NCBI GenBank assembly: GCA_028710985.1
Contig: JAQTTB010000002.1
Location: forward strand, 6,888 to 70,887
Reading direction: 5' to 3'
Length of the DNA: 64,000 bases
Origin: Patescibacteria group bacterium
GTDB lineage: Bacteria > Patescibacteriota > Patescibacteriia > JAHJFT01
Part shown: positions 6,839 through 52,640 of the stretch, one piece after another
Numbering within the stretch: the stretch's first letter is position 1
Layout: every line of letters starts with the position of its first letter
Notes under the pieces: generated by a model
What the model saw: the letters and a program-made list of their open reading frames with translations, nothing else
What the model was told of the DNA's origin: nothing
Database searches by the model: none
Translations under genes and position numbers: made by a program

Positions 6839-6882
6839 GTACAGATGAGGGGCGGCGGGGCGCGTTATTGCTCAGCAAGACT

Positions 6883-7164: not shown

Positions 7165-7275
7165 GTCGCACCTCCTTTTATTACGCTAGCGACTCTTTCT
7201 TTTACCACAACCGCGCCCCGCCTGTCAAGAGATGGCAACTGCCCAAATAATTGAATAAAATGGAAAGTCAACATC

Positions 7276-7423
7276 GTATAACAAAGTATATTTGGCTCTG
7301 CTCCTCTCCCGCCGTTGGCGGGTTCGTCGCTCCGCCCAAATTGGCTTCCGTTCCGGCGGTGTGCTTTCGCACAATTAAACCGCCTCCACTCCAGCCAACT
7401 TCATATATACTTAAACGTTAAAT
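7276..7423 (+). repeat. attC-like site 2 (R'' GTATAAC, R' GTTAAAT)
   Basis: Imperfect palindrome TATAACAAAGTATAT...ATATATACTTAAACGTTAAAT. Centre contains TCGCTCCGCCCAAATTGG and a GTGTGCTTTCGCACA hairpin. Confidence 0.5.
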
Positions 7424-7506
7424 CCAATAGCGATTGTAATTGATAATCCCATCCCAAAGGCAGTGCTTAACGATAACTTAATAAATGTCTAAAATTTTAT
7501 AAAATT

Positions 7507-8343: not shown

Positions 8344-8443
8344 ACGCACTGCCTTTTCCCACCCTTAAAATAGCAATCGCTACTCCTTCGCTCCATTTCA
8401 TTCCGCTCGGGCACGTTGCACTCTCCTCACTTCGTTCGTCGGC

Positions 8444-8538
8444 GGATTTAACAGGGCTTAAAGGGTTCGCTCGTTACACTTCGCTCTCCCAAATTTTTTG
8501 TGTGCGACAAAAAACTTCCCTTAAGCCCGATGTTATGT
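8444..8538 (+). repeat. attC-like site 3 (R'' GGATTTAAC, L'' AGGGCTTAAAGGG, L' CCCTTAAGCCC, R' GTTATGT)
   Basis: R'' is the exact reverse complement of the 9-mer GTTAAATCC that starts this cassette. L'' carries one extra A relative to L', as for an extrahelical base. Confidence 0.7.
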
Positions 8539-8564
8539 GAAATTTTTGTCCTATTTTTATCTAT

Positions 8565-8954
8565 ATGAACATAAAAAAAACTATTTTTAAAACCATTCTT
8601 ATAAATATTCTACTAGTTACAATTACAGCTATTATCTTAAGTTCGGTGTATTTACTTTCAGCACAAAAGACCGATCCAAAAAATTACTTACATATGGAAT
8701 ATTTAGATGACGAATTGCAGAATGGTCATTACATATGTCCGCATTTATGGGACAGATACTCCTATGCATGTGGCACAGGGGACTTAATTTATACTTTTGT
8801 TGTAGGTACTGTTGGTATAATTTTCCTTGCGTACATTCCACTTGGTCCAACTGCAGAATATGCGATTTTGAATTATGCAATTCTTTTGATAATTTTTATC
8901 ACTGTTTATATTGTGTCCAAAAATAGTACAAAAACATCACATAACAGCGTATAG
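8565..8954 (+). CDS. hypothetical small membrane protein (cassette-encoded)
   Basis: 129 aa with 2-3 predicted TM segments. The stop codon lies inside the attC R''/L'' region. Confidence 0.5.
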   Translation: MNIKKTIFKTILINILLVTITAIILSSVYLLSAQKTDPKNYLHMEYLDDELQNGHYICPHLWDRYSYACGTGDLIYTFVVGTVGIIFLAYIPLGPTAEYAILNYAILLIIFITVYIVSKNSTKTSHNSV

Positions 8955-9015
8955 CAGACTACGCTTCGCTCCGTCCAAATTGCTATGCAACTTCTGCTAT
9001 ACGTAAACGTTAGGC
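8938..9015 (+). repeat. attC-like site 4 (R'' CACATAAC, L'' AGCGTATAGCAG, L' CTGCTATACGT, R' GTTAGGC)
   Basis: R'' is the exact reverse complement of GTTATGTG at 8532. Centre contains TCGCTCCGTCCAAATTGC. Confidence 0.7.
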
Positions 9016-9036
9016 GAAATAACAAAAATTACCAAT

Positions 9037-9378
9037 ATGATATATATAATCTGGTTAGTCTTACTTAGCCTCTTTGTTTTTTCTTTCCTTGTTCCCAAAT
9101 TTCCTATCTGGATTCCTGTTTTAGCCTATTTATTGGTAGTTGGCGTGAGAGTTAAAGAAAAATATGGGAATTACTTAGATTGGATTGAAAAAAACCACCG
9201 CGATGAAGAGCGAGCGATTGATGCAAATTTGCATGATTTCGAAATTAAAGGGTTGGCCACAAGCGGAATGCGACTAAAGCAGGAAAATCATATTAAAAAA
9301 GACTTCGAGTATGAACGAAAAAAACAAAAAAGACAAAGAGACACAGAGCTAATCGATTGCTTATTCATAAAAAAGTAA
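9037..9378 (+). CDS. hypothetical small membrane protein (cassette-encoded)
   Basis: 113 aa with a hydrophobic N-terminus and a K/E-rich tail. Confidence 0.5.
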   Translation: MIYIIWLVLLSLFVFSFLVPKFPIWIPVLAYLLVVGVRVKEKYGNYLDWIEKNHRDEERAIDANLHDFEIKGLATSGMRLKQENHIKKDFEYERKKQKRQRDTELIDCLFIKK

Positions 9379-9390
9379 TTTTTGTTACAT

Positions 9391-9824
9391 CGCCTAACAC
9401 GGCATATCTGACTTCGCTTAAAAAACAGATAATTTTATTTACTAATATGCTACAATTATGTACGTACCCGCATGGATTTTCTTCGTCATTATGATAGCTA
9501 TGGCAGCTGCAACTATAGTAATTGATGATCACATAAAAAAGCAGAATAACAAACTAGAAGATCGAATTGATGATATCGAAAAAAGAATTAATGGTATTGA
9601 GGATTTTGTTGGTTTAGACGAAACGGCCCTAAAAGTACATAAGGAGTTGAAGATGGAGCAAGAGATGGATGAAATAACAAGGAATTCTTTTAATAAACAA
9701 GCTGGAAGGAATGTAAAATGAACATAGGATTATCTATTTTTTTAGCTCCGCCCATATTCCGCGCACACATTTTAATTAATAAATTGGGAGTGCGCGAAAC
9801 ATCGGATATGCCGAAACGTTATGT
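9391..9824 (+). repeat. attC-like site 5, enlarged to about 430 bp (R'' CGCCTAAC, L'' CGGCATATC at 9391-9411; L' GATATGCCG, R' GTTATGTG at 9804-9825)
   Basis: R'' is the exact reverse complement of GTTAGGCG at 9009. L''/L' match 9/9 although they lie 390 bp apart. The conserved centre (AGCTCCGCCCATATTCC plus a CGCGCAC..GTGCGCG hairpin) sits in the 3' half. Confidence 0.5.
9458..9721 (+). CDS. hypothetical 87-aa TM/coiled-coil protein carried on an insertion inside attC 5
   Basis: ORF lies between imperfect inverted repeats TAAAAAACAGATAAT (9419-9433) and ATTATCTATTTTTTTA (9729-9744). Confidence 0.4.
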   Translation: MYVPAWIFFVIMIAMAAATIVIDDHIKKQNNKLEDRIDDIEKRINGIEDFVGLDETALKVHKELKMEQEMDEITRNSFNKQAGRNVK

Positions 9825-9855
9825 GAAGTAATAATAATTCACTATTGCCCTTAAA

Positions 9856-10245
9856 ATGGAAAAAAAGATTAACAAATTCATCTATTGGACGCCGAGAATA
9901 TTATCAATAATGTTCATTTTATTCTTGATGCTGTTTTCTTTGGACATCTTTGACATGGATTTGAATTTTTGTGAAACTCTCGTTGGTCTGTTTATGCATA
10001 ATATCCCCGCATTATTCCTGTTGATCATTTTAATAATTTCCTGGAAATATGAAATTGTCGGAGGAATCGCCTTTATTCTCGCGGGGCTACTCTATATCCT
10101 GTTGCTGGCAATGAATCCCGTATTTGGATGGTATATGCTGTCATGGCCGGTAACAATTTCCGGTCCGGCATTTTTAATAGGAACATTATTTTTGGTTGGC
10201 TGGTTTTTAAAAAGAAAATCCAATAAAAATATTACTAAAATTTAA
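9856..10245 (+). CDS. hypothetical polytopic membrane protein (last cassette-like gene)
   Basis: 129 aa with 4 predicted TM helices; follows R' GTTATGTG at 9818. Confidence 0.5.
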   Translation: MEKKINKFIYWTPRILSIMFILFLMLFSLDIFDMDLNFCETLVGLFMHNIPALFLLIILIISWKYEIVGGIAFILAGLLYILLLAMNPVFGWYMLSWPVTISGPAFLIGTLFLVGWFLKRKSNKNITKI

Positions 10246-14123: not shown

Positions 14124-15245
14124 TTCATACACAATACCAAGCGCGTACAATATTATAACCGCGACCGGAATCACCATCGGCCACTTCATCACCGCGTGAA
14201 GCGGCTTTTTGTTTTTTCTCAGCCTTAGATACATGAGCACAATTAGAATACCGTTGATACCGCCGAAAATCGCGCCCGTAAATCCGATGATGCTGATAAA
14301 ATTATTCGCGCCGGCTAAAAAAACTATCAGTGGCACGATACTGACCGTAAACCAAGCCAGATATTTATTCATCTTTAAATCAAATGTCAGTGATTCCTTG
14401 AAGTTAACCATCACCACCATCACGCTGGTCGCGATGGCTAAAAACCCGAATATAGCGCCCACGTATTTGATCCAATCGCCCCATTGTCCGGCCAATCCGA
14501 GTATGGCATCCGGCGAGGTTGCGTCGCCGGTAACGCCAACGACCACCATGGTAAACGCCATAACAAGAATCAACGGAATCAGAGTTGAGATAACAATAAC
14601 TAGTCTTAAATTCCCAACATGGCCCTTGAGCACGTCACGAATTTCTGGAATCGCGTCCAGCCCGCTCAGGGCAAAAAGAATCACACCATATGGCAGAAAA
14701 AAATAAATCGGATTAAACGTCGATAAATTAATTAGATCAATATGCGGCGCGCCGTATCCCAAAATAATGGCCATAACCGCGACGAGCAGGGCGGTCATAA
14801 AAATTTCAACCGCTGAAACCAGCCTTAGCCCGTAAAATGTCGCCAGAGCGATCAGCGCGAAAAAAACTATTTGATACTGAAAGACCGTTCCGCCGAATAA
14901 TCCGCCAAAAATCGCGTGCATAAACGAGCCGCCGATGATAATATAAGCAACCAACGAACCGACCATGCCGAGAATCACGGAAAAATATGCCGCCCGCTTG
15001 CCCCAACGGCCCAAATATACAGAAGCCGCACCAATAAGACGATGTTTCTCGCGTAAATTTACCACCACGTCCGCGTAGAACAGGTGCGTAGCCAAAAGAC
15101 CGGCGCCAATCACGGTAAGATAAGCAATTCCGATGCCAAACCCGACCCTTGACACCACATAGGGCACACCAAAAATACCGGCGCCGATAATCAGACCGAA
15201 CATGGTTGAAATCGCTTTGATAATTGATTTTTGCCCCTCTTTCAT
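14109..15245 (-). CDS. amino-acid permease (HAAAP/APC-type, 11-12 TM)
   Basis: Polytopic membrane protein. Start trimmed to the internal ATG (MKEGQKS...) so that it does not overlap dnaB. Confidence 0.65.
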   Translation of the reverse strand: MKEGQKSIIKAISTMFGLIIGAGIFGVPYVVSRVGFGIGIAYLTVIGAGLLATHLFYADVVVNLREKHRLIGAASVYLGRWGKRAAYFSVILGMVGSLVAYIIIGGSFMHAIFGGLFGGTVFQYQIVFFALIALATFYGLRLVSAVEIFMTALLVAVMAIILGYGAPHIDLINLSTFNPIYFFLPYGVILFALSGLDAIPEIRDVLKGHVGNLRLVIVISTLIPLILVMAFTMVVVGVTGDATSPDAILGLAGQWGDWIKYVGAIFGFLAIATSVMVVMVNFKESLTFDLKMNKYLAWFTVSIVPLIVFLAGANNFISIIGFTGAIFGGINGILIVLMYLRLRKNKKPLHAVMKWPMVIPVAVIILYALGIVYELLPR

Positions 15246-39565: not shown

Positions 39566-39740
39566 ATTGATTAATCATATGAGTATAGTCCAAAATTATT
39601 AGTCTGTCAAACGTCTAGCCGAATGTAATCGATATTCAAGCATTGGGAATCAGGAATCAAGAATCATGAATCAGGAATAAAGCCCATCGCAACGCCCCTA
39701 ATTCCTGATTCCTAATTCTTGATTCTCTCCGTAGCAATTA

Positions 39741-39996: not shown

Positions 39997-40260
39997 AGTT
40001 TTTATTGAATTTTGGTTTATTATATAGAAACTCGATGAGAAACTCGACGACTTTTCATATCTTATTTCACCCACACAGTATAGCACATATAGGATAATTA
40101 ATCAAGAGCCAACTAAAAAGCGCCATTTCACAATGGTGCCTCTTAGTTGGCTCCGAGCGGCGCGTGAACTTAGAACCGTTATTCTGAACGGCTGGCACTC
40201 CTACGAAATGGACGCGGCCGTCAAAATGCTCCGCCATGAATCACCGTTCGATATGATAGA

Positions 40261-43200
40261 TTAAGTATTTGTAGGTTCTTTCTCGGCCGTTAAAGATTCT
40301 ACTTCCTTCCAAAAATCCTTTTCTTCTTTTTTTGGATTAGACACTTTAAGTCCTTTAATTCGCTCTACAACAAAAGCTTTATTCTCACCCTCAGGCCAGT
40401 CCTTAAGGCGGGCTAACAAATCTTTAAAATCTTTTTCATAAGCTGGATAGGTTGGTTTCACTTCATCTAAAATTCCAAGAGAAGTCTGCAAGGAGTTCTT
40501 ATCACGATCCGGTCTCAACATATCAAACAAAACATAAACGAAATCTTTAACGGGAGTCTCCTGCATAATTCCTGTTAGGCTAGATACAGTTTTTAAGGCA
40601 AAATGATGAGCTGAAGTTAATATTTTTCCTGGTTGTCTGAGCCAATCCAGAATTTCTTTACCAATCTCTCGTTTTTTCTCTTCTCCCAAAAAGTCAGACT
40701 TGATTAAAAAGTTGAAGCCGGCTTCTTGAGACGCAAGTGCATCAGATTTTATAAGATTTTTAATTTGAGTTACTGCCTGATCTTTCAAATCTACTGGATC
40801 ATTTTTGCTTAATTGAATCGGCAGATAATCATAAACTGCAATTTGTTCTCCAAAAGGGATAGACGTTACTTTAGCCAATAAAGATTTTACAACCATTTGT
40901 CGATCCGGCAGATTATCGCCCAAACTCTTTATAAAATTCAAACTATTTGCACCCTTCTGGTTAATAATATTTTTAAGCAACTCAATCTTTTTATCCTTAT
41001 CTGCTTTTTTGTATACAATTTCTAATAACACATCATCACTCATACTACGAGATAGCAATGGTTTGAAGTAGGTAGATAGAAATTTTTCGGCAGTTTCTTT
41101 TTTCCAATAATCAAATACTAAACCAATCTTAGCGGCTCCAGCGTTTTGGAAGTAACCATTAATCTGAGCTACGAGTTCATTCTGTTGTGCTTCTGGCACA
41201 TAGAAGCTAATCCAACGTAAATTATTAACTAAGCCCGTGCGATTATCCCAAGCCCCAATACTATTAAACGCCTGGATAAAATTCTTTGTAAGCTGAATTT
41301 TAGTGCCGTCATCAACAATCTTAAACTGATCCTGAAATTCACTAAATATATCCCCGCAAGTAGCGAATAAAGTTTCTTTTTCTGCGCGGTAGTCTGGACT
41401 CTCGGTAGTCTCTTTATTTATTACTTCAGTAATTTTTTGCAGAATTATATTAAACTTGTTCTTCTCTGAAATGTATTCCTTAAACTGCTTAATTATTGTA
41501 ATCTGTCCCGATAGACTATCTCGGTTGAAATTAGCGATAAATTTGTCAAACGCCTGGGGAGAAATAAAGGTCGTCTGTTCTTCAAGTGTGCCAAATAGCG
41601 ATATAATATCGAAATTTGTTGAAAAATTCTCATCAATAAACTTAACGATCTGAATTTTATCTTCATCTGCTATTAATGAAGCGTTTTGTTTTAAGTTCGT
41701 AAGAATATCTTTTAATATTGACCCCATATTTGGCTTACGAACCTCTTCTGTTCCCACGGCCAAAACATAGCGCTTAATTAAGGGTGCGCGGAACTGGACA
41801 TCTAGTTCCTGCTTCGTAATAAGGTCAGAAAAAACTAAGTTAGTTTGGAGCTGAGTGAAAAATTGCCATAGATCAGCATCTAAAACACGAGCAAGGGATT
41901 CGTAATATACTTTAGTCGAAGACGAAATCCCCAATTCGTGGAAAGCCTCTAAGTGAGTAGTAAATATTTTAAGCAATATATCTCTCTGGCTCCTATACTC
42001 ACGCAAGAGATGACGGATAAAATCAACTAATGATCCTTTATTGGTTTCCGCCGAGGCAAGTTCCTTAAATTTATCTTTGTTGCCCTCGGCCAAACTCAGT
42101 ATCATTTCCTCTGAATTGTTGAGAGATTGATAAATGGTCGGTTCTTTGAAATAGATAAACGGGCGGGCGTTAGAAACGGTAATACGGCTCGTATTTAACA
42201 TGAAGTTACGTAAATCAGCAGAATCTTTATCTTTTAGAATGTTTTCTGGTTCAAACCATTTATCCTTTAATCGATGATAAGCGGGTGTAAATTTTTGTCT
42301 AAGCACCAATACTTTTGCTAAATAAGCGATATTGTCTTTAATCCTTTGCCATACCTCCGTTTTAGAAGCTAAGACTAATGCTGCTATTAAATTATTTATA
42401 AACTGTTTAATCTCACGAGGATTGTTAGAAAAAGCATTGCTAATCACATAAACAATATCCTCTGAATCTTGACCTTGGAGTAAACTTTTTATTTCGCCGG
42501 TATCATTAATCAGTTTTTTAATATATGCGTGAAGATCGGCTTCAATAAATTCGGGCGTCCAAATTACAACATTAAATAGCTTTCTAAGATATTCTGAAGG
42601 GTCAAAATCTTCATCATCCTGACCACCATAAAAACTTTTGATTTGGCTAATAATGGCTTCTGAATCGCAGGGAACTATAAAAACAAGTCCAGCAACACCG
42701 GCCGGATCAAGGAACGTTTTGATAGCAGAAAGAATTTTTATTGCCGCATCACCCTGAACACGATCAATGTTATCAAAAACTATTACAACTTTTTTATTAA
42801 CTTTTTGAAGTATCAGTCTAAACAGAGCTTCAAATTGCTCCGGGGAGTTTAACCGTTCCTCTTTTTCAACCCTTGTTTTAATAGAGGCAAGTGGATTTAA
42901 CGAAGATAAAAACTTTTCGACCGAGCGTTCCCAAACTTTCTCCAGTAAAGGCTTAAAAAAGAGAGCTAGAACAGAGAATGAAGCTACAACGGCCGCAAAA
43001 TCTTTAATTGTTTGAATAATCAGATTATTATTTTTGAAAATCAAATTTAAAATTACCCATCCGATTACTAAAATCAGAGATAAGACTAAAAGCCAGTTTG
43101 TTTTTAACAACAACCAAACTTTTTTAAGCCATCCGGCAGAGCTTACTTGCATTTCGGCCGTCGTTATTTCGCAACTTTCCTCTGTTGATTTATAAAGAGG

Positions 43201-43536
43201 GTCAAGTATTTTTTTATCCTCGGGCGAAAGTTGTTTTTGACTAATCAGAAAGTTTACTAATTCGATCAAAAAAATTCTGCGTAACGAATCTTCCTGATAT
43301 TTCCATGCATCAAAAACAAACATCGGGCTTTGTAGATCGTGACGTATCATTTCAATGATTGTACTTTTGCCCGTACCCCACCTACTAAAAAGTCCGATGG
43401 TATGAACACAAGAATCGTTTTCTAGTATCTCTTTCATAGCTGGAGCAACGTTCTCATGATAAAAGCCAAAAATACCATCTTGACCATTACCAAGCGGGAC
43501 ATCTTTCAAAAATTTAAATTTTAGTTCTTCGGGCAT
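40261..43536 (-). CDS. KAP-family P-loop NTPase (1091 aa, TM helices inserted into the P-loop domain)
   Basis: Walker A GLFSRWGTGKST; two hydrophobic helices after about residue 130; hhhhDNID Walker B-like (VIVFDNIDR). Confidence 0.7.
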   Translation of the reverse strand: MPEELKFKFLKDVPLGNGQDGIFGFYHENVAPAMKEILENDSCVHTIGLFSRWGTGKSTIIEMIRHDLQSPMFVFDAWKYQEDSLRRIFLIELVNFLISQKQLSPEDKKILDPLYKSTEESCEITTAEMQVSSAGWLKKVWLLLKTNWLLVLSLILVIGWVILNLIFKNNNLIIQTIKDFAAVVASFSVLALFFKPLLEKVWERSVEKFLSSLNPLASIKTRVEKEERLNSPEQFEALFRLILQKVNKKVVIVFDNIDRVQGDAAIKILSAIKTFLDPAGVAGLVFIVPCDSEAIISQIKSFYGGQDDEDFDPSEYLRKLFNVVIWTPEFIEADLHAYIKKLINDTGEIKSLLQGQDSEDIVYVISNAFSNNPREIKQFINNLIAALVLASKTEVWQRIKDNIAYLAKVLVLRQKFTPAYHRLKDKWFEPENILKDKDSADLRNFMLNTSRITVSNARPFIYFKEPTIYQSLNNSEEMILSLAEGNKDKFKELASAETNKGSLVDFIRHLLREYRSQRDILLKIFTTHLEAFHELGISSSTKVYYESLARVLDADLWQFFTQLQTNLVFSDLITKQELDVQFRAPLIKRYVLAVGTEEVRKPNMGSILKDILTNLKQNASLIADEDKIQIVKFIDENFSTNFDIISLFGTLEEQTTFISPQAFDKFIANFNRDSLSGQITIIKQFKEYISEKNKFNIILQKITEVINKETTESPDYRAEKETLFATCGDIFSEFQDQFKIVDDGTKIQLTKNFIQAFNSIGAWDNRTGLVNNLRWISFYVPEAQQNELVAQINGYFQNAGAAKIGLVFDYWKKETAEKFLSTYFKPLLSRSMSDDVLLEIVYKKADKDKKIELLKNIINQKGANSLNFIKSLGDNLPDRQMVVKSLLAKVTSIPFGEQIAVYDYLPIQLSKNDPVDLKDQAVTQIKNLIKSDALASQEAGFNFLIKSDFLGEEKKREIGKEILDWLRQPGKILTSAHHFALKTVSSLTGIMQETPVKDFVYVLFDMLRPDRDKNSLQTSLGILDEVKPTYPAYEKDFKDLLARLKDWPEGENKAFVVERIKGLKVSNPKKEEKDFWKEVESLTAEKEPTNT

Positions 43537-43603
43537 ATTTTTACTTTTTCACTACTTCTTCTACTAAAGATTTTATTTTCCAGATTTGGTCTAGTTACTT
43601 TGT

Positions 43604-44773
43604 TTACCGATTACCTTTTGCTCGATTGTGTGTCTTGCAAAGCATCTGGCAGTTTTTTGCTGAAGTTGCACCTCCCTTGCTCCAGGCTGCTACATGGTCT
43701 GCGTCCATTTCGCTAAAACTCCAAATCTTACTCTTGTTAGCATCATGCCCAATGGCACAATGCGGGCAGTTTGATTCGTCTTTTTTCTCTGCCTTGACGG
43801 TTTGTGTTGTATAAACCGTCTTTTTGGTTGCTTCATCAAAAACTCGGACTTCAAGTAATTTTGTGTCAATGGAACCACCAAGAATATACTCAAAAATACC
43901 TTTGCGATTTTTAACATACGGATCAGCATAGAGCTTCTGTACCTCGGCTGATACTTTGGCTGGATTGTACGATTTTTTATGGTGTTCCTCATAAAGTCGC
44001 CCCCACTCAAGACCGCGCATCTCGCTTTCAACATTAGTAAACACACTAGAAACCCAATCGATCACGCTGTTGAAATATTTTTTTAATTCATTAATATTTT
44101 TTTCAAAACGATGACGACTCATATAATCGCCGATATTACCTTTGCTTACCCAATCCAGCGCACATTCTAAAAATTCCTGCCGGTTAGCGCTACCGGATAC
44201 ATACGCGCTCCATTTTTGAATGTTGGCGTTTTGGCTATTACTAAATTCCTCCTTGCCGAGCGTTACAAACGGCCCGGAATACACCGCATTAAGTAATTCC
44301 TGACCATTAAGTGGAACACCGGCAATATTAATTGTTTTGAACCACTCTTTTATCTCGCTTTCTTTCCCTTCGCATTCGTAAATAAGTAAAGTAGTTTTTA
44401 AAATTTTACCCTGTTTGTCTTTTGCCATACCGCTAAAATATTGCTCCATGCCGTTTTCGTCTTTGATAGCAAATTTGTCAGTTATAAACCGCCCAAGACT
44501 AGTGATGCGTTGCTGGCCGTCTAAAACCTCTAAATTGTTGTCGCTTACTTTGTTAAAATAGATCAATCCTATCGGGTACTCTTTGAGGACTGATTCAATG
44601 ACGGCCATTTCTTTTTTACCACCATCAGAAGCATAAATATAATTGCGTTGATACTCCGGTTGAATGGTCAATTTACCAGACAAACCGAACAAACCCTTAC
44701 CTTCAAGTTCGTTATAGACAAACCCATCGCAAATATCTTTAACAGTAATATTAATTTTTAAAGTTGTTTTCAT
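43604..44773 (-). CDS. DUF262 (ParB-like) plus HNH nuclease; GmrSD/BrxU-like type IV restriction-type enzyme
   Basis: DUF262 motifs IQPEYQRNY and [11 protein letters not shown]-terminal HNH: CPHC...[12 protein letters not shown]...[15 protein letters not shown]. Confidence 0.7.
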
Positions 44774-45966
44774 ATTATTTTTTTCTTATGTTTAATAAGC
44801 ACTCTTTGATAAACTTTTTCCAATAAACCATCTCGAATAATTACTCCACTTGCGTTCAAGTCATAGGTTCCTGTTTTCCCGAATTTATCTAAATACGCCT
44901 GTTTACATTCTGCGGATGTATACACTTTTGTTTTTTGTTTATATAAATCTTCATTCTCACACATTCCAACAATCTTAAACTGCTCGGGGCTATATTTATC
45001 AAGAATACTGACCGGTACTCCCATTACGCCGCTGTAATCGCTCGGGATATTTTTTACTAACGACACTTCTATCGCGTTATAATTTTCATATTTCTCAAAC
45101 GGTTTTTTCATTACGAACTTTATCACCTCTGCCTTGGTCATGAGTGGGAGTGGCTGATGACGACGCCCATGGTCAAGATTGGTAAACCAGCGAACACCCT
45201 GCACTCTAGTGACATATACTTTTTTTCCGCTTTCATTTGTTTTTATTTCACGAACCTGCTCTAAATTGGCAATGTTTTCGGGTATCTCAAAAAACATTGC
45301 ACCGGCATTAACTTTGTAATTATTACCTAACCAAACTTTATTCTCTTTAAGTAATGGGAATATTTCTTTGTAGGTAATCGCGTTCAGGTTGCCGATGATC
45401 AAAAACTTTTTATCATACTTAACAAGTTGTTTTATGTACTCGCGAAATAGACTGAACGGCGGATTAGTTACCACAATGTCAGATTGTTTCAATAGATTAA
45501 TGGACTCATCGCTGCGAAAGTCGCCGTCGTCCTTTAGCGGCATCCATTCGTTATGTTTGTTTGCCTTTAACTGCTTAGCAATGTCTTTCAAGTTGAACTC
45601 GCCATCGCCGTCTATATCGCGCACTTCGTTAATAATGAACTTGTTGGCATTTATCTTTGGACGGCCTTTTGATTTAGTAAGAGTTTTGTCATCGCCAAAT
45701 AATTCCAGTTGCGTATTGGCAACGGGCGAGGGTTTGTAACTAGTGGTGATAAGCTGCTTCAATCCAAGCTTGTTGAAATTAAGCACGAAATAGCGGAAAA
45801 AATTGCTCTCAAACGGGTCGTCGCAGTTACAATACACCACCTTGCCTCGAAATACGTTAGGATCGTATTCCAAATACGCCTCAATCTCTTTCTGAATATC
45901 GCTGTACTGAGTATAAAACTCGTCATTCTTTACTTTTTTTGCGTTTGCAAGATTTTTGTTTGCCAT
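44770..45966 (-). CDS. N6-adenine DNA methyltransferase (NPPF motif; EcoRI-methylase-like family)
   Basis: N-terminal KNDEFYTQ and motif IV VVTNPPF. Overlaps the downstream DUF262-HNH gene by 4 bp. Confidence 0.65.
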
Positions 45967-45970
45967 AAAA

Positions 45971-46675
45971 TTATTTTTCGTTATCTAGGGCAAGCTTCAG
46001 TAAAAATATCGTCTCGGCTCTGAGTTTCGACTTCACCCAAGCTTTCTGCTTCTCGTCTAGAAGTTCGCCCATACCGGAAAGAATATTGCGGTCACTGACT
46101 TTCTCCAAAGAGTTAATGCATTTTTGTAAAAAATCTTTATAAGACGTTCCTGTTCGGCCCTCTATAATTTCTTTATTCACCGGCCAGTTATTATGCAAAA
46201 AATAATACACGTCAAAAATATCACGATTAGTCTTACCGATGCGTTCATACATCGCACAAAGTTTATGAGCCAACATATCTTCCTTCACCATGACTTTCAT
46301 AGAGATGCCAAGGTATGCCTTTACTTCATACCTCGATCCAAAATTCCGGCGATTTATTTCCACCTTAATATTTTGAGCACCGATTTCCTTATCATCGTAA
46401 GAAAGTAAAAATAAAAGATTGAACCTTTTCGTTTGAGCTTCTTTAATGGTGCCGTAGGCACTTAAAATCTTTTGAATTTGTTCAAAGACATAATCTTCCT
46501 TACTCTCTTCCAACAGATCAAAATCCAAGTCTACTGAAAAACGATTGAGATCATAAAAAAGAAAGGCGGCTGTACCTCCTTTGAATCCCAAAAGCGGTCC
46601 AATAGTTGAATCAGTGTAAATGTCTTTTAAAATTCTGACGAGAATATTTTTGTGTTTTACTGTATCAAGTGACAT
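45971..46675 (-). CDS. AbiEii/DUF1814 nucleotidyltransferase toxin
   Basis: GFKGGTAAFLFYDLNRFSVDLDFD motif. Confidence 0.75.
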   Translation of the reverse strand: MSLDTVKHKNILVRILKDIYTDSTIGPLLGFKGGTAAFLFYDLNRFSVDLDFDLLEESKEDYVFEQIQKILSAYGTIKEAQTKRFNLLFLLSYDDKEIGAQNIKVEINRRNFGSRYEVKAYLGISMKVMVKEDMLAHKLCAMYERIGKTNRDIFDVYYFLHNNWPVNKEIIEGRTGTSYKDFLQKCINSLEKVSDRNILSGMGELLDEKQKAWVKSKLRAETIFLLKLALDNEK

Positions 46676-46680
46676 AGAAT

Positions 46681-47313
46681 TTATTTGGGATTATTTATTA
46701 AAGACTCGTGATATTTTTTGACCATTCTCTCCATTCGTTTATTACCTCCGTAGATAGGCAAGATTAAGTTAACTTTGTCCCAATCCAAAACTGACAAATT
46801 ATCAAAATGATAATCCGTGTTTAAATAAACAACATCTAAAAATGCTCTTTCAGTCGAAGCAATACTGTAATTATCTTTTATTTCGATGCCGGCATTGTTA
46901 GTGAGAATTTCGTCTTTAATCCTTTTGAAAGCAACTACTTGCCCATCGCATTCAATTTCTTTATTTTGGTACGAAGCAACAAAAATTTTAGAGTAGTGTT
47001 GAAAGGTTACACCGGCCGATCCGAGGACGGTTTCAAAACTGACGTAAGAAGGCGTAAATATTTTGGTAGCTAACTCATATTTGTCGTAATTTTTGTCCTT
47101 GGCATAAAGACCGCGACGTATATGGTAAAGATTATTGTGTTTAGTATAGTAATTAACCCTTGAACCAGCGGTAAGCTTGTCAATTCCTCCCCAAAGCAAA
47201 ATAAGGTCTTTGAAAGAAAAAACCGTTTTGCTTGATCTCAATATTTCGTTTAAAAAGCCTTTTTCCATATGTTTGAAGTTAAATATAAGACCCTGCCTTA
47301 TGTTCAACTCCAA
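46681..47313 (-). CDS. AbiEi-like antitoxin / transcriptional regulator
   Basis: Directly upstream of AbiEii; N-terminal wHTH-like region with IRRGLYA; 210 aa. Confidence 0.65.
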   Translation of the reverse strand: MELNIRQGLIFNFKHMEKGFLNEILRSSKTVFSFKDLILLWGGIDKLTAGSRVNYYTKHNNLYHIRRGLYAKDKNYDKYELATKIFTPSYVSFETVLGSAGVTFQHYSKIFVASYQNKEIECDGQVVAFKRIKDEILTNNAGIEIKDNYSIASTERAFLDVVYLNTDYHFDNLSVLDWDKVNLILPIYGGNKRMERMVKKYHESLINNPK

Positions 47314-47367
47314 TTATATGATATAATCAATAAGAGTGCAAGAGCTAAGGGGATAAACAAAACAACT

Positions 47368-47445
47368 GATTAATCACTGTCTTATAATATAATAAGACAT
47401 GTAATTTTTTAGAAATAAAGAAGCCTTATTATATTATAAGGCTTG
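47368..47445. promoter_or_regulatory. two related palindromes in the divergent promoter region (candidate AbiEi operators)
   Basis: GTCTTATAATATAATAAGAC and AAGCCTTATTATATTATAAGGCTT sharing the core CTTATwATATwATAAG. Confidence 0.4.
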
Positions 47446-47453
47446 AATAACTT

Positions 47454-48398
47454 ATGAGAAAACAGCTTAAAGCAATAATTAATAAGCTAAACAAACGGCC
47501 AATATCTTCTTTGACCGGCGATGAATTTGATGTGTATTTTGAACACCGAATGGATAACTTGATATGTGATAAAAAGGTCCTCACTAAAAATGAGCTTGTC
47601 TATCTCCTTTCCGAAACCGGTCCCGGTAATCGACGCATTGATCCGCGATTAGTATTAAAGCTTGTCGATCAAAACATTCTAGTTTCTTCCATACTTGGGG
47701 CTTTACCTGAAATGACAAAATTAAAAGGCCAAAAAGAAAAAGTGGATAAATATATACTCGACCATAAAAGCTCTAAGGAAACTAAACAATCAATTATTAA
47801 ATTGATTGGGAGTTATCTAAAAAATGTAAAAATGATTTCAGATGATCCCTTTATAATCGAAGCCACATTTAAGAATATGCCAATCTCCTGCCTGATAAAA
47901 AACGGTGGCTGGATATTTCCGGATTCAGAATTATTTTCTTTTCTAAGCGCAGTTCAAAAACAAAAAAGGTTTCCAATAGTAATTGCTAAAAAGATATCGG
48001 GTATTCTTTTTCCGGTATTTAAGGGATTGTCGATTTTAGGTTTAAATCTATACAAAACCCTTTTGCCAGAGGAGGGAGAAAAGTTAATAACTAGCTCTAT
48101 TTATAAACCAAAAGAGAGTTTTCTATCAGAGCTGAAGTATAACGGTCAGTTTCAATTTTTAACAAGAGAATACGTTGAAAATATCCAAGACGAATATTGG
48201 AATGGCGATCCGCTAAAAAACTTCTTTGAGAATGTCTTGCTCGGAAATATATCTACTTATTACGAGAATTTCTCAAATTTGAAAATAAATATTACCGATA
48301 ATTTTGCCGATACTGTATCTCAGTTCAGAAAAAACAAAACGACAAAAAATTTACTTGAAATGTATAAAACGCAAGAAAAGATTATTAGCGCTAAATAA
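47454..48398 (+). CDS. hypothetical protein (314 aa, AT-rich, defence-island context)
   Basis: ORF only; no recognised motif. Confidence 0.45.
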   Translation: MRKQLKAIINKLNKRPISSLTGDEFDVYFEHRMDNLICDKKVLTKNELVYLLSETGPGNRRIDPRLVLKLVDQNILVSSILGALPEMTKLKGQKEKVDKYILDHKSSKETKQSIIKLIGSYLKNVKMISDDPFIIEATFKNMPISCLIKNGGWIFPDSELFSFLSAVQKQKRFPIVIAKKISGILFPVFKGLSILGLNLYKTLLPEEGEKLITSSIYKPKESFLSELKYNGQFQFLTREYVENIQDEYWNGDPLKNFFENVLLGNISTYYENFSNLKINITDNFADTVSQFRKNKTTKNLLEMYKTQEKIISAK

Positions 48399-48721
48399 TT
48401 TCCGTCAACTTCTTGTCAGCTTTTGTCAGAATAATTTATCCACAGATGGACCTATTGACCGCGGCCTTTCCGGTCCGCTATTATAAAAGCATAAGAGATA
48501 GGAGTTTGCCTGACGGCGTTCCGATTTATCGGAACTAAGTGTGACGGGGCTACGACTTCTGTCATCAAGCACTACGTGTTTTTTTGCTTGATGATGTGAA
48601 GTGGTAGCCCTTTTTTGTTTTTCAATTAAAAGTTAATTCCCTCTGAGGTTAAGTGCCTCGATAAGAAAGCTTAGTATTTGAATAGAAAGATAAAGGCTAG
48701 TCCCAGCGGGGCCAGCCTTTT

Positions 48722-48922
48722 ATGTTGCCCCAAGAAGCTATACAAGAATTTAAAGAATTATACGAGAAACGCTACGGCGTAAAACTCTCCGATGAGGAGG
48801 CTTCTTTGCGCGCCAACAATCTTTTTAAACTCTACAAAATAACTTATATGGGTGAGCCATCTATTGATGACTTCCAAGAAAAAGTAGTGAAAAGCCATGA
48901 CTTACAACCAAACCACAATTAG
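48722..48922 (+). CDS. small hypothetical protein (66 aa)
   Basis: ORF only. Confidence 0.25.
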   Translation: MLPQEAIQEFKELYEKRYGVKLSDEEASLRANNLFKLYKITYMGEPSIDDFQEKVVKSHDLQPNHN

Positions 48923-49208
48923 CGAAATCCAATTCTATCCGGTTAAACCCAAGGACGGTCTCCTCGGGTTTGTTTCGTTTGTCCTGGACGGCAAATTCTG
49001 GATGGGATCGGTGGCCGTGTTCAGCCGGCCGGCCGGCCGATACCGGCTGGTTTATCCCACACGCAAAGTGGGAGGCCAGAACATAAACATTTTTCATCCG
49101 ATTACCCATGAAGCCGGCCAGGAGGTCGAAATGGCCATTAATGAAAAAGTAGCTGAATTACTTAGTGAAAATTATGAATCAGACGAACCAACCCAAAACA
49201 CGTGGTAA
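48897..49208 (+). CDS. SpoVG-family protein
   Basis: IQFYPVKPKDGLLGFVSFVLDGKFWMGSVAVF...INIFHPITHEAGQEV resembles SpoVG. Confidence 0.55.
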   Translation: MTYNQTTISEIQFYPVKPKDGLLGFVSFVLDGKFWMGSVAVFSRPAGRYRLVYPTRKVGGQNINIFHPITHEAGQEVEMAINEKVAELLSENYESDEPTQNTW

Positions 49209-49608
49209 AAGCTTTAATTTCTTTCCGGCTCCTCACGCTCTCTTTGACGATGAAAAACTGCGTCGTACTTTGACTCACGCCGAACGCGACTTTTTAATGG
49301 CTTTATGCCATCTCACCAACCGCCACGGCAATAAGGACGGCTGGTTTTGGCACATCGACGAAACATTTATAACGCGAGAGAACAAAGAACACGGTTTCGC
49401 TTCATTGGGTTTTAGCCGGTCCACTTGCCGGCGCGTCAGAAAAAAATTGATCAACATGGGACTCATAGAAATAAAACCGGGCACGATGGAACGTGGCCGC
49501 TGGGTCGGAACGATGTACCGTCTCAACCCGCGATTGCTGAAAACGACGGGGGTTCAAAATGAAGCACGGTCAGGCACCATAGAGAACCCCGGCCCGGGAC
49601 CACCATGA
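49165..49608 (+). CDS. putative replication-initiator-like wHTH protein
   Basis: FFPAPHALFDD...ERDFLMALCHL...GFSRSTCRRVRKKLINMGLIEI wHTH pattern. Located directly upstream of an iteron-like repeat field. Confidence 0.35.
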   Translation: MKIMNQTNQPKTRGKSFNFFPAPHALFDDEKLRRTLTHAERDFLMALCHLTNRHGNKDGWFWHIDETFITRENKEHGFASLGFSRSTCRRVRKKLINMGLIEIKPGTMERGRWVGTMYRLNPRLLKTTGVQNEARSGTIENPGPGPP

Positions 49609-49689
49609 AGCACTAAGTAATAAAGATTGAGTAAGAAAAAATAATTAATAAAAAGCTTAAATAAAGCAAGCAAGCTTGCTGAAAAATTA

Positions 49690-50010
49690 AAAAATAGGGG
49701 TTGGGCAAAGCTTGGGTGAAACTTGGGTAGATTTCGATCCATTGAATGGCGACCAAAGGCGACTAAAAGGCGACCAGAAAATGAGGGTAAGGTGTGGGTG
49801 AAATGAGGGTGGAATTTGGGAATTATGGTTGCACTAAAATGCACTAAACCTGCACCAAAATTGGAGAAATCAGACTGGGGCAAAACTGGGGTGAAATTGG
49901 GGCAGCTTTTGGGAGAATCGTCTGCGACAAGGCATCGGGGAAACATCGGGTATTTTGGCGGACACGGCCGGATGAAATCGGTACAAAATCGGTATAAGAT
50001 TTGACCCTCC
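49690..50010. repeat. field of phased short direct repeats / A-tracts (iteron-like, predicted curved DNA)
   Basis: GGCGACCAAA / GGCGACTAAAA / GGCGACCAGAAA; TGCACTAAAA / TGCACTAAACC / TGCACCAAAA; CTGGGGCAAAA / CTGGGGTGAAA / TTGGGGCAG; AATGAGGGT x2; CTTGGGT x2; CATCGGG x2; AATCGGTA x2. Each unit recurs with a 10-11-bp period. Confidence 0.6.
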
Positions 50011-50119
50011 TCTTATTAAAAAATCAATAAAACGGTAAAATAGAAATATACGTTTGACTTACTTCGACCTTAGGCCCATGTTGTGTGTAGAAAGGTCGAA
50101 ACAAACAATTAAATAATTA

Positions 50120-50995
50120 ATGAACAAAACTATGACTAAAAACGCCAAAATTTACGCCGTAATCGCCATTGTAGCGGTTCTTGGGGCAGGTTACGGAGTT
50201 TATCACCTCTTAGGCAACAATGCACCGCGTGGGGCCGAAACAACAGACATGGCCTCCATTACGAACTTTGACCAGTGCGTCGAAGCGGGATTCGCCATAA
50301 TGAAGTCCTATCCCGAGCAATGTATGACTTCCGACGGACGGATTTTCGTAAACCAAAATCCGCCGGCAGAAAGCGAACTCAATAAAGCCGAAGAAGCGAT
50401 CCGCACTTTTATGGGAGAGCCGAATCTGGAGTTGCAATACACCGGCCAGAATAATCATCTCTCCAACTTCGCAGTCTTGAGCAACGTCAAACAAAACGAC
50501 GGCGGGTTCACGGCCGACAATCCAGAAGAATGGGATCGCCCGATTTACATTTTTCAACAAAAAGATTTTATCAACGACCGCTGTGAAATTTACGAATACG
50601 AAGTGAGCACGAAAACCTACCAGGTCATCCAGGTCGGCATCAGATATCCACAGGAGCGTAGCGCAGTCATGCCAGGCAACTGCCCTGGCAACGGATCGCT
50701 GGACTGGCCGCTTATGAGCAAAGACGAAATCGAACAGGCCGCGTTCTCATACCTCGGCCATGATCCGGAACACACTAAGTTTTTAATAAGGTCTGACATC
50801 CAGCCGCAATACATATCCAGCAAACCGGACGCGAAAAATCCGGCGGCCAATGAATGGCGCTGGGAGGATAAAAGCTACAAATTGCCGGACGGACTTATGG
50901 GCGACCCATGGCCTTATCCGACTATGAGAATAATAATGTCGGCCGGCGGTAAGTTGGTTTATTACCTGAACACCACCGACCTATTTAAAAACTAA
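50120..50995 (+). CDS. hypothetical membrane-anchored protein (291 aa)
   Basis: N-terminal TM. The stop overlaps the recombinase start (ATGA). Confidence 0.5.
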   Translation: MNKTMTKNAKIYAVIAIVAVLGAGYGVYHLLGNNAPRGAETTDMASITNFDQCVEAGFAIMKSYPEQCMTSDGRIFVNQNPPAESELNKAEEAIRTFMGEPNLELQYTGQNNHLSNFAVLSNVKQNDGGFTADNPEEWDRPIYIFQQKDFINDRCEIYEYEVSTKTYQVIQVGIRYPQERSAVMPGNCPGNGSLDWPLMSKDEIEQAAFSYLGHDPEHTKFLIRSDIQPQYISSKPDAKNPAANEWRWEDKSYKLPDGLMGDPWPYPTMRIIMSAGGKLVYYLNTTDLFKN

Positions 50996-50996
50996 T

Positions 50997-52607
50997 ATGA
51001 ACCAGGAAGTACAACCAAAATTCAAGTACTTCCTCTACGCTCGAAAATCTTCAGAACAAGAAGATAGACAGGTCCTTTCGATTGACTCGCAAAAGAGCGA
51101 ACTGGAAGCGCTTGCAAAAAGAGAAAAGCTCCAAATTGTGGAGCGTCTGGAAGAATCATACTCGGCCAAAGCACCGGGCCGTGAGATTTTCAATCAGATG
51201 ATAAAACGGATAGAGAAAGGCGAAGCTGAGGGCATAATCGCCTGGCATCCGAACCGGCTCTCGCGTAATTCCGTGGACACCGGATACCTGGTCTATCTCA
51301 TGGATCAGAACAGGCTTCAGGACATACGTACACCCGGTCAGGCCTATCGAAACACACCGAATGATAAATTTCTTCTTAACCTCCTGTGTAGTCAGGCTAA
51401 ACTTGAAAATGATAATAAGGGTATTGATGTAAAACGCGGACTAAGGCGCAAGGTAGAAATGGGTTGGCACCCTGGGCCAGCACCGGTTGGCTATATGAAC
51501 ACGCCAGATAAGCTGAAAGGTTTTAAAACGATCCGCAAAGACCCGAAGATGTTTCCGATTGTTCGGAAAATGTTTGATATGCTTTTAAGCGGAGATTTTA
51601 CCGCTCCCCGTGTTCATGAGATTGCTATTAGCAATTGGGGCGTAAAGAAATTAGCGCGAAGCGGATTCTACCGCGTGCTTTATAATCCTTTCTATTATGG
51701 CTGGTTTGAATGGCCACAAGGCTCAGGTAACTGGCACAAAGGCAAGCACGAGCCGATGATCACACGCGACGAATACGACCGAGTCCAAAAACTACTCGGC
51801 CATGGGAGCAAACCAAAACCGGAAACCCACACTTTCGCTTACACCGGCATGATTCGTTGCGGCGAGTGCGGCTGTATGGTTACGGCCGAGAATAAAATAA
51901 AGAAAAACAAAAACGGCAACGTCCATCACTACACCTATTATCACTGCACTAAAAGAAAAGGTCCGTGCAGTCAGAAATGCATTGAGGTGGATGAACTGGA
52001 AAAACAGATCAAAAAAACGTTGGCCAAAGTTCAGCCACCGGAAGAATTCCACGGCTGGGCAATGAAGTGGCTTCAGAACGAAAACGGACGCGAGGCGGCC
52101 GATCGAAACGCAATACTTTCCAACCAACAAAAGAATTACGAAGTCTGCGTGAAAAAACTAGACGCTTTAATTGATATGCGCGCCGCCGGCGAGATCAGCG
52201 AAGAAGAATTCACACGCAAGAAATCGGAAGTCAACCAGGAAAAAGCCAAGTTGCACGAACTTCTAAATGACACTGACAGCCGCATAGACAGCTGGCTTCA
52301 GACGGCCGATAACATTTTAACCTTCGCCGGCGACGCCAACGAAGCGTTCACAGAACGAGGCCAGCATGCGAGAAAAGTAATTTTGTCTGCCCTCGGTTCG
52401 AACCTCCTCTTAAAAGACAAAAACATAAGAATTGACACGGATTCCGCGCTTCTGCCGTTAATTCTTGTCTCATCCGGGTCAAATCAAAAAATTGGACGGT
52501 TAGAACCTGCCCAAATAGGCTCTAATAAAGAGAAAAGCGGAGCTTTTGGCTCCGCAAATCCCACATGGCTCTGGGGGTGGGATTCGAACCCACGACCAAT
52601 TGGTTAA
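50997..52607 (+). CDS. large serine recombinase (integrase)
   Basis: N-terminal resolvase domain (YARKSSEQEDRQVLSIDSQ), recombinase domain and zinc ribbon (CGECGC...YYHC). The ORF 3' end runs into the tRNA-Asn 3' end, so the true stop may be earlier. Confidence 0.85.
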   Translation: MNQEVQPKFKYFLYARKSSEQEDRQVLSIDSQKSELEALAKREKLQIVERLEESYSAKAPGREIFNQMIKRIEKGEAEGIIAWHPNRLSRNSVDTGYLVYLMDQNRLQDIRTPGQAYRNTPNDKFLLNLLCSQAKLENDNKGIDVKRGLRRKVEMGWHPGPAPVGYMNTPDKLKGFKTIRKDPKMFPIVRKMFDMLLSGDFTAPRVHEIAISNWGVKKLARSGFYRVLYNPFYYGWFEWPQGSGNWHKGKHEPMITRDEYDRVQKLLGHGSKPKPETHTFAYTGMIRCGECGCMVTAENKIKKNKNGNVHHYTYYHCTKRKGPCSQKCIEVDELEKQIKKTLAKVQPPEEFHGWAMKWLQNENGREAADRNAILSNQQKNYEVCVKKLDALIDMRAAGEISEEEFTRKKSEVNQEKAKLHELLNDTDSRIDSWLQTADNILTFAGDANEAFTERGQHARKVILSALGSNLLLKDKNIRIDTDSALLPLILVSSGSNQKIGRLEPAQIGSNKEKSGAFGSANPTWLWGWDSNPRPIG

Positions 52608-52640
52608 CAGCCAACTGCTCTGCCACTGAGCTACCCCAGA
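52566..52640 (-). tRNA. tRNA-Asn (GTT), CCA encoded
   Basis: Cloverleaf folded by hand: acceptor TCTGGGG/CCCCAGA, D arm GCTC-AGTGGCA-GAGC, anticodon loop CTGTTAA, T arm GTGGG-TTCGAAT-CCCAC. Confidence 0.85.

Follow-up and report, generated by a model that had tools for sequence, protein, structure and literature searches.

The closest described systems and the cassette

In Type I and Type III restriction-modification (R-M) systems, the restriction subunit is conserved and harmless without the modification subunit, and the specificity component is variable and recombining. Passenger genes inside the locus are a habit better known from Type I loci. The EcoRI system pairs R.EcoRI with M.EcoRI, a GAATTC-specific methyltransferase (MTase). 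In the Type IV enzymes GmrSD and BrxU, a helical region joins an N-terminal DUF262 domain with a DGQQR motif to a C-terminal nuclease of the His-Me-finger type and DUF1524 family (PMC12707154). A further DUF262 nuclease, SspE, serves a modification module as its restriction arm and itself lacks any part that reads sequence (PMC12707154). Here, we describe an EcoRI-family MTase paired with a DUF262-HNH protein on a 64,000-nucleotide stretch of a Patescibacteria (candidate phyla radiation, CPR) metagenome-assembled genome (MAG; contig JAQTTB010000002.1, positions 6,888 to 70,887), termed the window below. The best overall explanation, which we hold with moderate confidence, is that the genes in question form the defence-cargo arm of a mobile element and include an MTase-directed R-M cassette.

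An earlier note, made from the sequence alone, had described positions 40261 to 48398 of the window as an AT-rich defence island of foreign composition. All six of its open reading frames (ORFs) were found again, and GC content over 40-49 kb was 0.34-0.39, compared with ~0.50 in the flanks. The six genes are:

40261-43536, minus strand: KAP-family P-loop NTPase, 1091 aa (ORF; Pfam KAP_NTPase, PF07693, 2e-24)
43604-44773, minus strand: DUF262-HNH putative restriction subunit, 389 aa (Pfam GmrSD_N and HNH; PADLOC REase_II)
44770-45966, minus strand: EcoRI-family N6-adenine DNA methyltransferase, 398 aa (Pfam EcoRI_methylase; PADLOC MTase_II)
45971-46675, minus strand: AbiEii, DUF1814 nucleotidyltransferase toxin, 234 aa (Pfam AbiEii 7e-18; PADLOC PDLC02324 3.7e-80)
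46681-47313, minus strand: AbiEi antitoxin/regulator (PADLOC AbiEi PDLC02255 2.8e-56, covering aa 19-200)
47454-48398, plus strand: 314-aa protein, no family assigned (ORF divergent to the cargo arm; ~130 homologues)

The five minus-strand genes are tightly packed: the MTase and nuclease genes share 4 bp, the spacers on either side of AbiEii measure 4 and 5 nt, and the KAP gene follows the nuclease gene after 67 nt. The listed start codon of AbiEi is TTG, with an ATG at codon 16 (47268) as an alternative. No match was obtained in an E. coli megablast search with the island, and an Rfam scan of the island detected a tRNA only. From their families, these genes are predicted to provide three layers of defence: AbiE toxin-antitoxin (TA)/abortive infection, an N6-methyladenine (m6A) R-M pair, and a Tmn-like membrane KAP NTPase. 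The locus itself is an ordinary defence island of known families on a mobile element; its R-M cassette is not ordinary.

The putative nuclease matched Pfam GmrSD_N (DUF262) at 1e-20 and HNH (PF01844) at 3e-6, as well as the PADLOC REase_II model PDLC03418 at 2.4e-78 (aa 8-388 on model positions 7-371 of 372). It is composed of a ParB/Srx-like DUF262 domain with the motifs IQPEYQR and LDGQQR (the latter at aa 83-88), a helical middle region, and a C-terminal HNH domain. Both motifs are invariant in the alignment, and the invariant residues include D84, G85, Q86, Q87, R88, C335, C338, D358, H359, N373, C378, H381 and N382. The invariance of IQPEYQR and LDGQQR suggests nucleotide binding, as in GmrSD and BrxU. 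The order of domains is likewise that of GmrSD and BrxU; however, the nuclease domain of the window protein is a PF01844 HNH domain rather than DUF1524, for which no match was found in the Pfam search. Sequence searches of the PDB with the nuclease and with the MTase returned nothing, and a profile search with the nuclease alignment gave noise only, with BrxU (7p9k) at E 0.15. Further, and unlike GmrSD and BrxU, the window-type nuclease is consistently paired with an m6A MTase, implying the opposite polarity, in which methylation would protect. The resemblance to SspABCD-SspE is one of logic and not of membership: in both cases a DUF262 nuclease would act as the restriction arm of modification-based self/non-self discrimination, but the mark of the cassette would be N6-methyladenine placed by a single MTase rather than phosphorothioate, and its nuclease domain is HNH.

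The MTase belongs to the M.EcoRI family over its full length. It matched Pfam EcoRI_methylase (PF13651) at 1e-123 (aa 5-394 on model positions 1-345 of 345) and the PADLOC MTase_II model PDLC03297 at 2e-102, carries NPPF at aa 168-171, and is ~45% identical to true M.EcoRI, as encoded beside R.EcoRI on an E. coli plasmid. In contrast, the nuclease of the cassette is unrelated to R.EcoRI, and the window MTase differs from M.EcoRI in the type of its first hypervariable segment and in a ~60-aa C-terminal extension that holds the second. The R and M genes are thus separate neighbours that match catalogued Type II models. The earlier note had left its DUF262/HNH and MTase calls open to refutation by profile search and had asked for a PADLOC run; both calls held, the Type II R and M models matching the two proteins over their full length and AbiE being matched as well.

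The nuclease has thousands of relatives. In a collection holding one genome per species, matches were confirmed in at least 563 species genomes from more than 10 phyla, together with one archaeon. The best 80 of these, 79-90% identical to the window nuclease, were used for the comparison of loci; all loci mentioned here and below are cited by number (such as L101). Their hosts were CPR lineages, Omnitrophota, Proteobacteria, Bacteroidota, Chloroflexota, Planctomycetota, Verrucomicrobiota, Bacillota and a DPANN archaeon. The cassette was also detected on plasmids from many phyla, such as those of Enterococcus, Moraxella, Arthrobacter, Rhodococcus and Pediococcus (55-69% identity), and in the Flavobacterium phage laban6-1.

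An EcoRI-family MTase gene was located directly upstream of the nuclease gene in 74 of the 80 genome loci, most of the other six having too little upstream DNA to judge, and the MTase adjoined the nuclease in at least 24 of the 25 best plasmid matches. The pairing, which the earlier note had called unusual, is instead one of those in which this DUF262-HNH protein most often occurs. The flanks of the cassette varied, and included secA, an HTH_3 gene resembling that of a C protein, T5orf172 and, in the window, AbiE. Because the two genes are paired across loci while the flanks differ everywhere, the MTase and nuclease constitute a mobile and functional unit. A full-length MTase of this subfamily (42% identity, 95% coverage) was also encoded by the Mycobacterium phages Marchy (PQ362668.1), Norz (ON970624.1) and Hami1 (PQ362672.1), which were absent from the DUF262-HNH matches listed or counted; phage MTases of this kind would fit self-methylation as anti-restriction. 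Collectively, the PADLOC Type II models, the recurrent adjacency in unrelated contexts and the mycobacteriophage MTases support the proposal that the operon is an R-M-like system rather than a lone Type IV enzyme, and that the pair is a very widespread R-M cassette. No paper describing a DUF262-HNH protein paired with an MTase was found in the literature searched. Databases name the cassette "Type II" or just "DUF262 domain-containing protein", and it is present in hundreds of species, most bacterial phyla, Enterococcus resistance plasmids and phages.

Two of these flanking genes lie ahead of the cassette. A T5orf172/MUG113 gene precedes it in several CPR genomes (L001-L005, at ~6100-6800), and at L011 the upstream gene (8653-8862) encodes an HTH_3 protein of 69 aa similar to the controller (C) proteins of R-M systems.

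A constant nuclease and a modular methyltransferase

Divergence at synonymous (pS) and nonsynonymous (pN) sites was calculated between the window and the 80 loci. For the nuclease gene, the median pS was 0.725, which is near saturation, and pN was 0.091, as compared with a pN of 0.20 for the MTase gene. Since synonymous sites are near-saturated and pN is low, the conservation of the nuclease reflects strong purifying selection and not recent spread. Across phyla, the nuclease is 79-94% identical. Identity of the MTases to the window MTase ranged from 42 to 92% and was uncoupled from nuclease identity. Two hypervariable segments were found in the MTase: segment 1 (aa 215-262), with a mean pairwise identity of 0.23, and segment 2 (aa 338-382), with a mean pairwise identity of 0.05 and represented in M.EcoRI by a short stretch only. 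Identity in the core and catalytic blocks was 0.65-0.79. The nuclease had no variable stretch, with an identity of 0.62-0.96 per 20-aa block.

Segment 1 was resolved into 12 types that are mutually unalignable and each internally conserved. M.EcoRI and many cassette MTases are of type 5, the window MTase of type 9. Segment 2 was resolved into 33-35 types. The segments reassort independently of each other, with 51 combinations in 66 cassettes and single segment-2 types joined to as many as four segment-1 types. Pairwise nuclease identity was 0.815 between cassettes of the same segment-1 type and 0.807 between cassettes of different types. When alignment columns were compared with MTase type, none of the nuclease showed an association: adjusted mutual information (AMI) for nuclease columns reached a maximum of 0.17 (median, 0.01), as against values of up to 0.50 for columns of the MTase core.

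In four independent cases, the nuclease was intact, with all catalytic motifs retained, and the MTase disrupted or missing. At L101-L104, a single T inserted directly 5' of the NPPF codons breaks the MTase gene into two ORFs (167 and 193 aa; L101, 7895-8126); the MTase of the near-identical L107 is intact. On a Microbacterium plasmid (L093), the MTase is truncated by IS256, and at L062 it is reduced to aa 202-385. At L029, the 4.4 kb upstream and the 3.7 kb downstream of the nuclease contained no MTase of the family.

Insertions recur between the MTase and nuclease genes, a hotspot with passenger genes in ~15 genomes. The loci with an insertion at this position are:

L016, L018, L025, L027, L032, L034, L041, L055
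L061, L067, L070, L075, L079, L083, L085, L086

Ten inserted genes were profiled, of which eight were matched and two were without a match. The passengers encoded RhuM, Bro-N, an OLD-type AAA/TOPRIM protein, PIN_8, a D12 MTase, MUG113/T5orf172, DUF2130 and Schlafen AlbA_2.

The cassette therefore resembles Type I and Type III systems in having a constant R, a variable and recombining M, an R that is tolerated without its M, and passenger defence genes in the locus, with a role of the segments in specificity that would complete the parallel. It differs from these systems in that it has no helicase-like ATPase, PD-(D/E)xK nuclease, HsdS or Mod homologue. This evolutionary signature argues against the database label "Type II". 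Since the nuclease has no variable region, shows no co-variation with the MTase and survives broken MTases, it would most likely be directed by the MTase, in the manner of Type I and Type III systems.

We propose that two swappable, recognition-like segments would determine the sequence in which the EcoRI-family MTase methylates adenine, and that the conserved DUF262-HNH protein would cut DNA without that methyl mark. The nuclease would have no sequence specificity of its own and would be directed or licensed by the MTase, or by the methylation state that the MTase reads. In this scheme, the ParB-like nucleotide-binding domain would be the switch and the HNH domain the blade. These steps, from methylation-sensitive cleavage and the recognition role of the segments to MTase dependence and nucleotide use, are inferred from sequence comparison and differ in strength. 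Restriction from which methylation protects is likely. Direction of the nuclease by the MTase is favoured over the alternatives but held tentatively. More tentative still is the suggestion that the cassette may be a distinct R-M class, parallel to Types I and III, in which a specificity-free switch/HNH nuclease works with an MTase that shuffles two modules, the KAP protein possibly being a methylation-tied back-up.

Several observations weigh against MTase direction. The loci with broken MTases come mostly from MAGs, and another protecting MTase, a hidden change that inactivates the nuclease or an assembly error may explain them. No fusion of M and R was present among 120 listed homologues, and there was no direct sign of a complex. 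If the PADLOC label "Type II" goes back to a characterised enzyme, recognition would be expected to be autonomous. The nearest solved relative of the nuclease by sequence is BrxU, a Type IV enzyme, the match being insignificant (E 0.15). Searches for motif avoidance in the host DNA of the window, in ~860 kb of pooled host loci and by segment type revealed no target motif, almost all palindromes being depleted in these genomes. Finally, the assignment of segments 1 and 2 as recognition modules derives from their modularity and from the presence of one type in M.EcoRI, and they may instead be surface modules unrelated to specificity. GAATTC itself was not depleted in host DNA (12 occurrences against 13.7 expected), the window MTase being of segment-1 type 9 and M.EcoRI of type 5.

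The strongest competing explanation is a classical Type IIP system, in which the DUF262-HNH protein would read one fixed sequence alone, all linked MTases would methylate that sequence, and the variable segments would be irrelevant. The full-length PADLOC REase_II and MTase_II matches, the M-then-R order with a 4-bp overlap, which is typical of such systems, and the C-protein-like HTH gene upstream at one locus are all consistent with this proposal, and the very strong conservation of the nuclease fits a single fixed specificity. However, discrete and reassorting MTase segments, one type of which is also that of the GAATTC-specific M.EcoRI, would be difficult to account for if specificity did not differ, and an intact nuclease beside a disrupted or absent MTase should be lethal. 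In addition, a nucleotide-binding DUF262 domain is foreign to classical Type IIP enzymes, and avoidance of a motif was not detected. We consider a Type IIP system unlikely. If the nuclease is MTase-directed, the cassette would add a mechanistic class of R-M system, would extend the role of the ParB-like DUF262 domain from Type IV and phosphorothioate-linked enzymes to methylation-protected restriction, and would permit one constant nuclease to be retargeted by a swap of MTase modules.

The integrative element and its cargo

The AT-rich genes flagged by the earlier note are the cargo arm of a large-serine-recombinase element located at the 3' end of a tRNA-Asn gene. The features of the element, other than the six genes above, are:

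~40154-52565: integrated mobile element, ~12.4 kb (blastn against L101, junctions, integrase)
40106-40153, minus strand: left junction, GAGCCA followed by a hairpin and a T-run (inverted repeat; terminator-like match at 40120-40139)
40148-40153: left TGGCTC copy, element junction
40.2-47.3 kb: cargo arm, GC ~0.36
47381-47396: 16-bp palindromic box CTTATAATATAATAAG, divergent promoter region, putative operator
47425-47440: 16-bp palindromic box CTTATTATATTATAAG, divergent promoter region, putative operator
47.4-52.6 kb: element backbone
48722-48922, plus strand: 66-aa ORF (ORF call)
48897-49208, plus strand: SpoVG-like ORF, 103 aa (homologue in L095/L101 with a weak precomputed PF04026 match)
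49165-49608, plus strand: 147-aa replication-initiator/DnaD-like protein (PHROGs phrog_270 "replication initiation protein" 7e-8, phrog_428 6e-7, phrog_186 1.4e-5)
49703-49909: three 32-nt repeats, candidate iterons (72-81% identity, 82-93 nt apart)
50120-50995, plus strand: 291-aa protein with an N-terminal hydrophobic helix (hydropathy maximum at aa 13-31)
50997-52607, plus strand: large serine recombinase (integrase), 536 aa (Pfam Resolvase 3e-20, Recombinase, Zn_ribbon_recom; PHROG phrog_95 3e-65)
52566-52571: right TGGCTC copy, element junction and tRNA-Asn 3' end
52566-52640, minus strand: tRNA-Asn(GTT), integration target (ARAGORN; Rfam tRNA 73.8 bits)

Window positions 40150-52597 are homologous to L101 at 72-80% nucleotide identity by blastn. 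L101-L104, from another CPR genome, have the same gene order from KAP to the recombinase within different flanks, and the L101 element likewise adjoins the 3' end of a tRNA gene, which is interrupted by a group I intron. In the window, the tRNA-Asn 3' end adjoins the right edge of the element, where an integrase with Resolvase, Recombinase and Zn-ribbon domains is encoded; the recombinase has an 89% identical copy in L101, and its listed ORF extends 42 nt into the tRNA gene. Because of the tRNA/TGGCTC junctions and the homologous L101 copy in other flanks, the element is taken to span ~40154-52565. The AT-rich genes of the earlier island thus stand, but its right-hand limit does not, as the island reaches ~52565. 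A search for long direct repeats at the element ends gave only the 6-bp TGGCTC core. The GAGCCA, hairpin and T-run at the left junction would represent the displaced original tRNA 3' terminus with its terminator. Collectively, these data make it very probable that the locus is a mobile element with defence cargo.

Among the backbone genes, the window copy of the SpoVG-like ORF was without a match in Pfam and PHROG searches. The 291-aa protein had no match in Pfam, PHROG or PADLOC, and has a homologue of 287-291 aa in L095-L104. The position of the 32-nt repeats beside a Rep-like gene suggests that they may be iterons. The cargo slot downstream of the TA and R-M genes is exchangeable, being occupied by SIR2_2 and a HerA-like ATPase in L099/L100 (1-2198) and, after AbiE, by an OLD-family ATPase in L136, where the window carries the KAP NTPase. 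The analysis delimits a family of small integrative elements carrying defence cargo among CPR bacteria, whose genomes are tiny and whose mobile elements and immunity are poorly known.

Three structured regions were observed along with the element. The intron in the L101 tRNA matched group I intron RF00028 (14978-15199, 83.6 bits, E 1e-21; tRNA halves at ~14930-15240), and this tRNA was missed by ARAGORN. Both copies have a hairpin just inside the right end, beyond the 3' end of the tRNA (window 52537-52555; L101 ~14903-14921), with compensatory changes, GCGGAGC...GCTCCGC in the window and GCCACG...CGTGGC in L101; it may be an element-supplied tRNA terminator or part of the attachment site. The ~320 non-coding nt between the 314-aa gene and the 66-aa ORF (48399-48721) contain GC-rich hairpins and are conserved in L101, where they lie in a block of 77% identity; Rfam gave no match for this region.

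The AbiEi/AbiEii pair, described as complete in the earlier note, was recovered as such by PADLOC, at the E-values given above; AbiEi was far below the cut-off of NCBIfam TAA_AbiEi and was without a match in Pfam. AbiEi proteins bind inverted repeats in promoters (PMC7319586), and AbiEi autoregulation proceeds via inverted repeats (PMC3985639). As in described AbiE Type IV TA systems, AbiEi precedes AbiEii, here by 5 nt, and inverted repeats are present in the promoter region (PMC7319586, PMC3985639). Unlike in those systems, the putative operon runs on into the R-M and KAP genes, and the palindromic boxes track the 314-aa gene despite a change of AbiE subfamily or replacement by HipA, so that they may belong to the 314-aa gene.

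The divergent 314-aa unknown proved to be a real gene, with ~130 homologues (42-77% identity, mostly in CPR bacteria) and an AlphaFold (AF2) model with a pLDDT of 92.4; it matched no profile in Pfam, PHROG or PADLOC. The model shows an N-terminal helical domain, a central beta-beta-beta-alpha-beta core and C-terminal helices. A Foldseek search with the model found nothing significant. Weak partial matches to Mrr-type phage proteins, EndoMS, a splicing endonuclease, MspJI and Cap4 recurred, and weakly suggest a restriction-endonuclease-like alpha/beta central domain. An active PD-(D/E)xK nuclease is not supported, as the central domain has no conserved acidic catalytic residues.

The 314-aa gene faces AbiEi-AbiEii at a distance of ~180 nt in ~29 of the 32 metagenome loci with enough upstream DNA. 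The exceptions were another AbiE subfamily followed by an OLD ATPase (1520-3406) at L136, an AbiEi_2-type gene at L141, and a HipA kinase at L139. A serine recombinase is encoded ~3 kb downstream of the 314-aa gene in many loci, and an R-M pair is attached to it in few loci only. All 33 loci examined have, in the 120 nt ahead of the 314-aa homologue, one or two boxes with the palindrome consensus CTTATAATATTATAAG, as compared with one match in ~340 kb elsewhere. Box variants preserve the symmetry, and promoter-like hexamers overlap the boxes on both strands. Because the boxes persist across AbiE subfamilies and HipA, the 314-aa protein is favoured as the box binder. The 314-aa gene is a conserved backbone gene facing variable TA and defence cargo, and its product is a putative DNA-binding regulator of the element backbone. 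The conserved operator and the linkage pattern give a first handle on this orphan family.

Tmn is a single-gene defence KAP NTPase with two transmembrane (TM) helices in its P-loop domain (bioRxiv 10.1101/2022.08.21.504612). The window KAP protein, for which an intramembrane insert had been claimed, resembles Tmn in this respect: hydrophobic segments at residues 139-170 and 179-199 lie between Walker A (GTGKS, residue 54) and Walker B (VVIVFDN, residue 250). Partial PADLOC matches to QatA, PifA and PDC-S20 were also obtained. However, the score against the QatA model NF041923 was 81 bits, compared with a cut-off of 600, and the element has no QatBCD genes. In contrast to Tmn, QatA and PifA, the window protein is grouped with full-length homologues of ~1090 aa (24-84% identical) in a separate family, the ~700 C-terminal residues of which are conserved.

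An EcoRI-family MTase/DUF262-HNH pair lies directly upstream of KAP in the window element (with its sister L101) and at L157. A Type I/IIG-like M and S pair precedes KAP at L158, and KAP is beside N4/N6 and Dam-like MTase genes at L159. At L160, KAP has no MTase and a transposase is adjacent. A functional tie of KAP to DNA methylation systems is possible on these five contexts only. A Deinococcus R-M paper that names a KAP NTPase lists it in a table as a differentially expressed gene and is irrelevant here.

These linkages bear on the proposal that the cluster is a chance accumulation, with KAP, AbiE and the 314-aa gene functionally unrelated to each other or to the R-M pair. Most R-M cassettes do occur without KAP, AbiE or the 314-aa gene, most 314-aa/AbiE loci are without the R-M pair, and SIR2-HerA replaces KAP in L099. 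Against this, the five minus-strand genes are closely spaced, KAP is next to DNA MTase genes in four of five independent contexts, the 314-aa gene and its boxes always face a TA arm, and the entire array is conserved in a second genome; chance accumulation is improbable. The least probable explanation, and a very improbable one, is a Type IV enzyme of the GmrSD or BrxU kind with a functionally separate companion MTase that, for example, marks self DNA for another purpose: a DUF262 N-terminus with DGQQR joined to a His-Me-type nuclease is the GmrSD/BrxU architecture (PMC12707154) and the nuclease tolerates loss of the MTase, but in 74 of 80 loci, and on plasmids from various phyla, the MTase gene neighbours that of the nuclease and is often translationally coupled to it, a DUF1524 match is absent and the BrxU similarity insignificant, diversification of MTase modules is sensible only if the linked effector uses the mark for self/non-self discrimination, and mycobacteriophage MTases without a listed nuclease match fit protective methylation.

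Other features of the window

Between bipA and cspA, positions 39631-39727 contain nested inverted repeats of 25-27 nt, 85-92% complementary, with GAATCAGGAAT-like units; their sole Rfam match was to a miRNA family, below threshold, and looks like chance.

A second low-GC block, at 2368-10245 (GC 0.29-0.40), encodes a tyrosine integrase (2368-3180, minus strand), a D12-class N6-adenine MTase (3474-4532; PADLOC Type II MTase 2e-58), ORFs of 363 and 271 aa without a known family, an MBL-fold protein and a DUF7670 protein. This block is probably another integrated island with an R-M system, and the 363- or 271-aa ORF could be the nuclease of the D12 MTase. Outside both islands, depletion among 4-mer palindromes in the host DNA was strongest for GATC (observed/expected [O/E] 0.70, z -6.4) and TCGA (O/E 0.72, z -4.5), and CATG was enriched (O/E 1.33). 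This bias may be linked to the island with the D12-class MTase.

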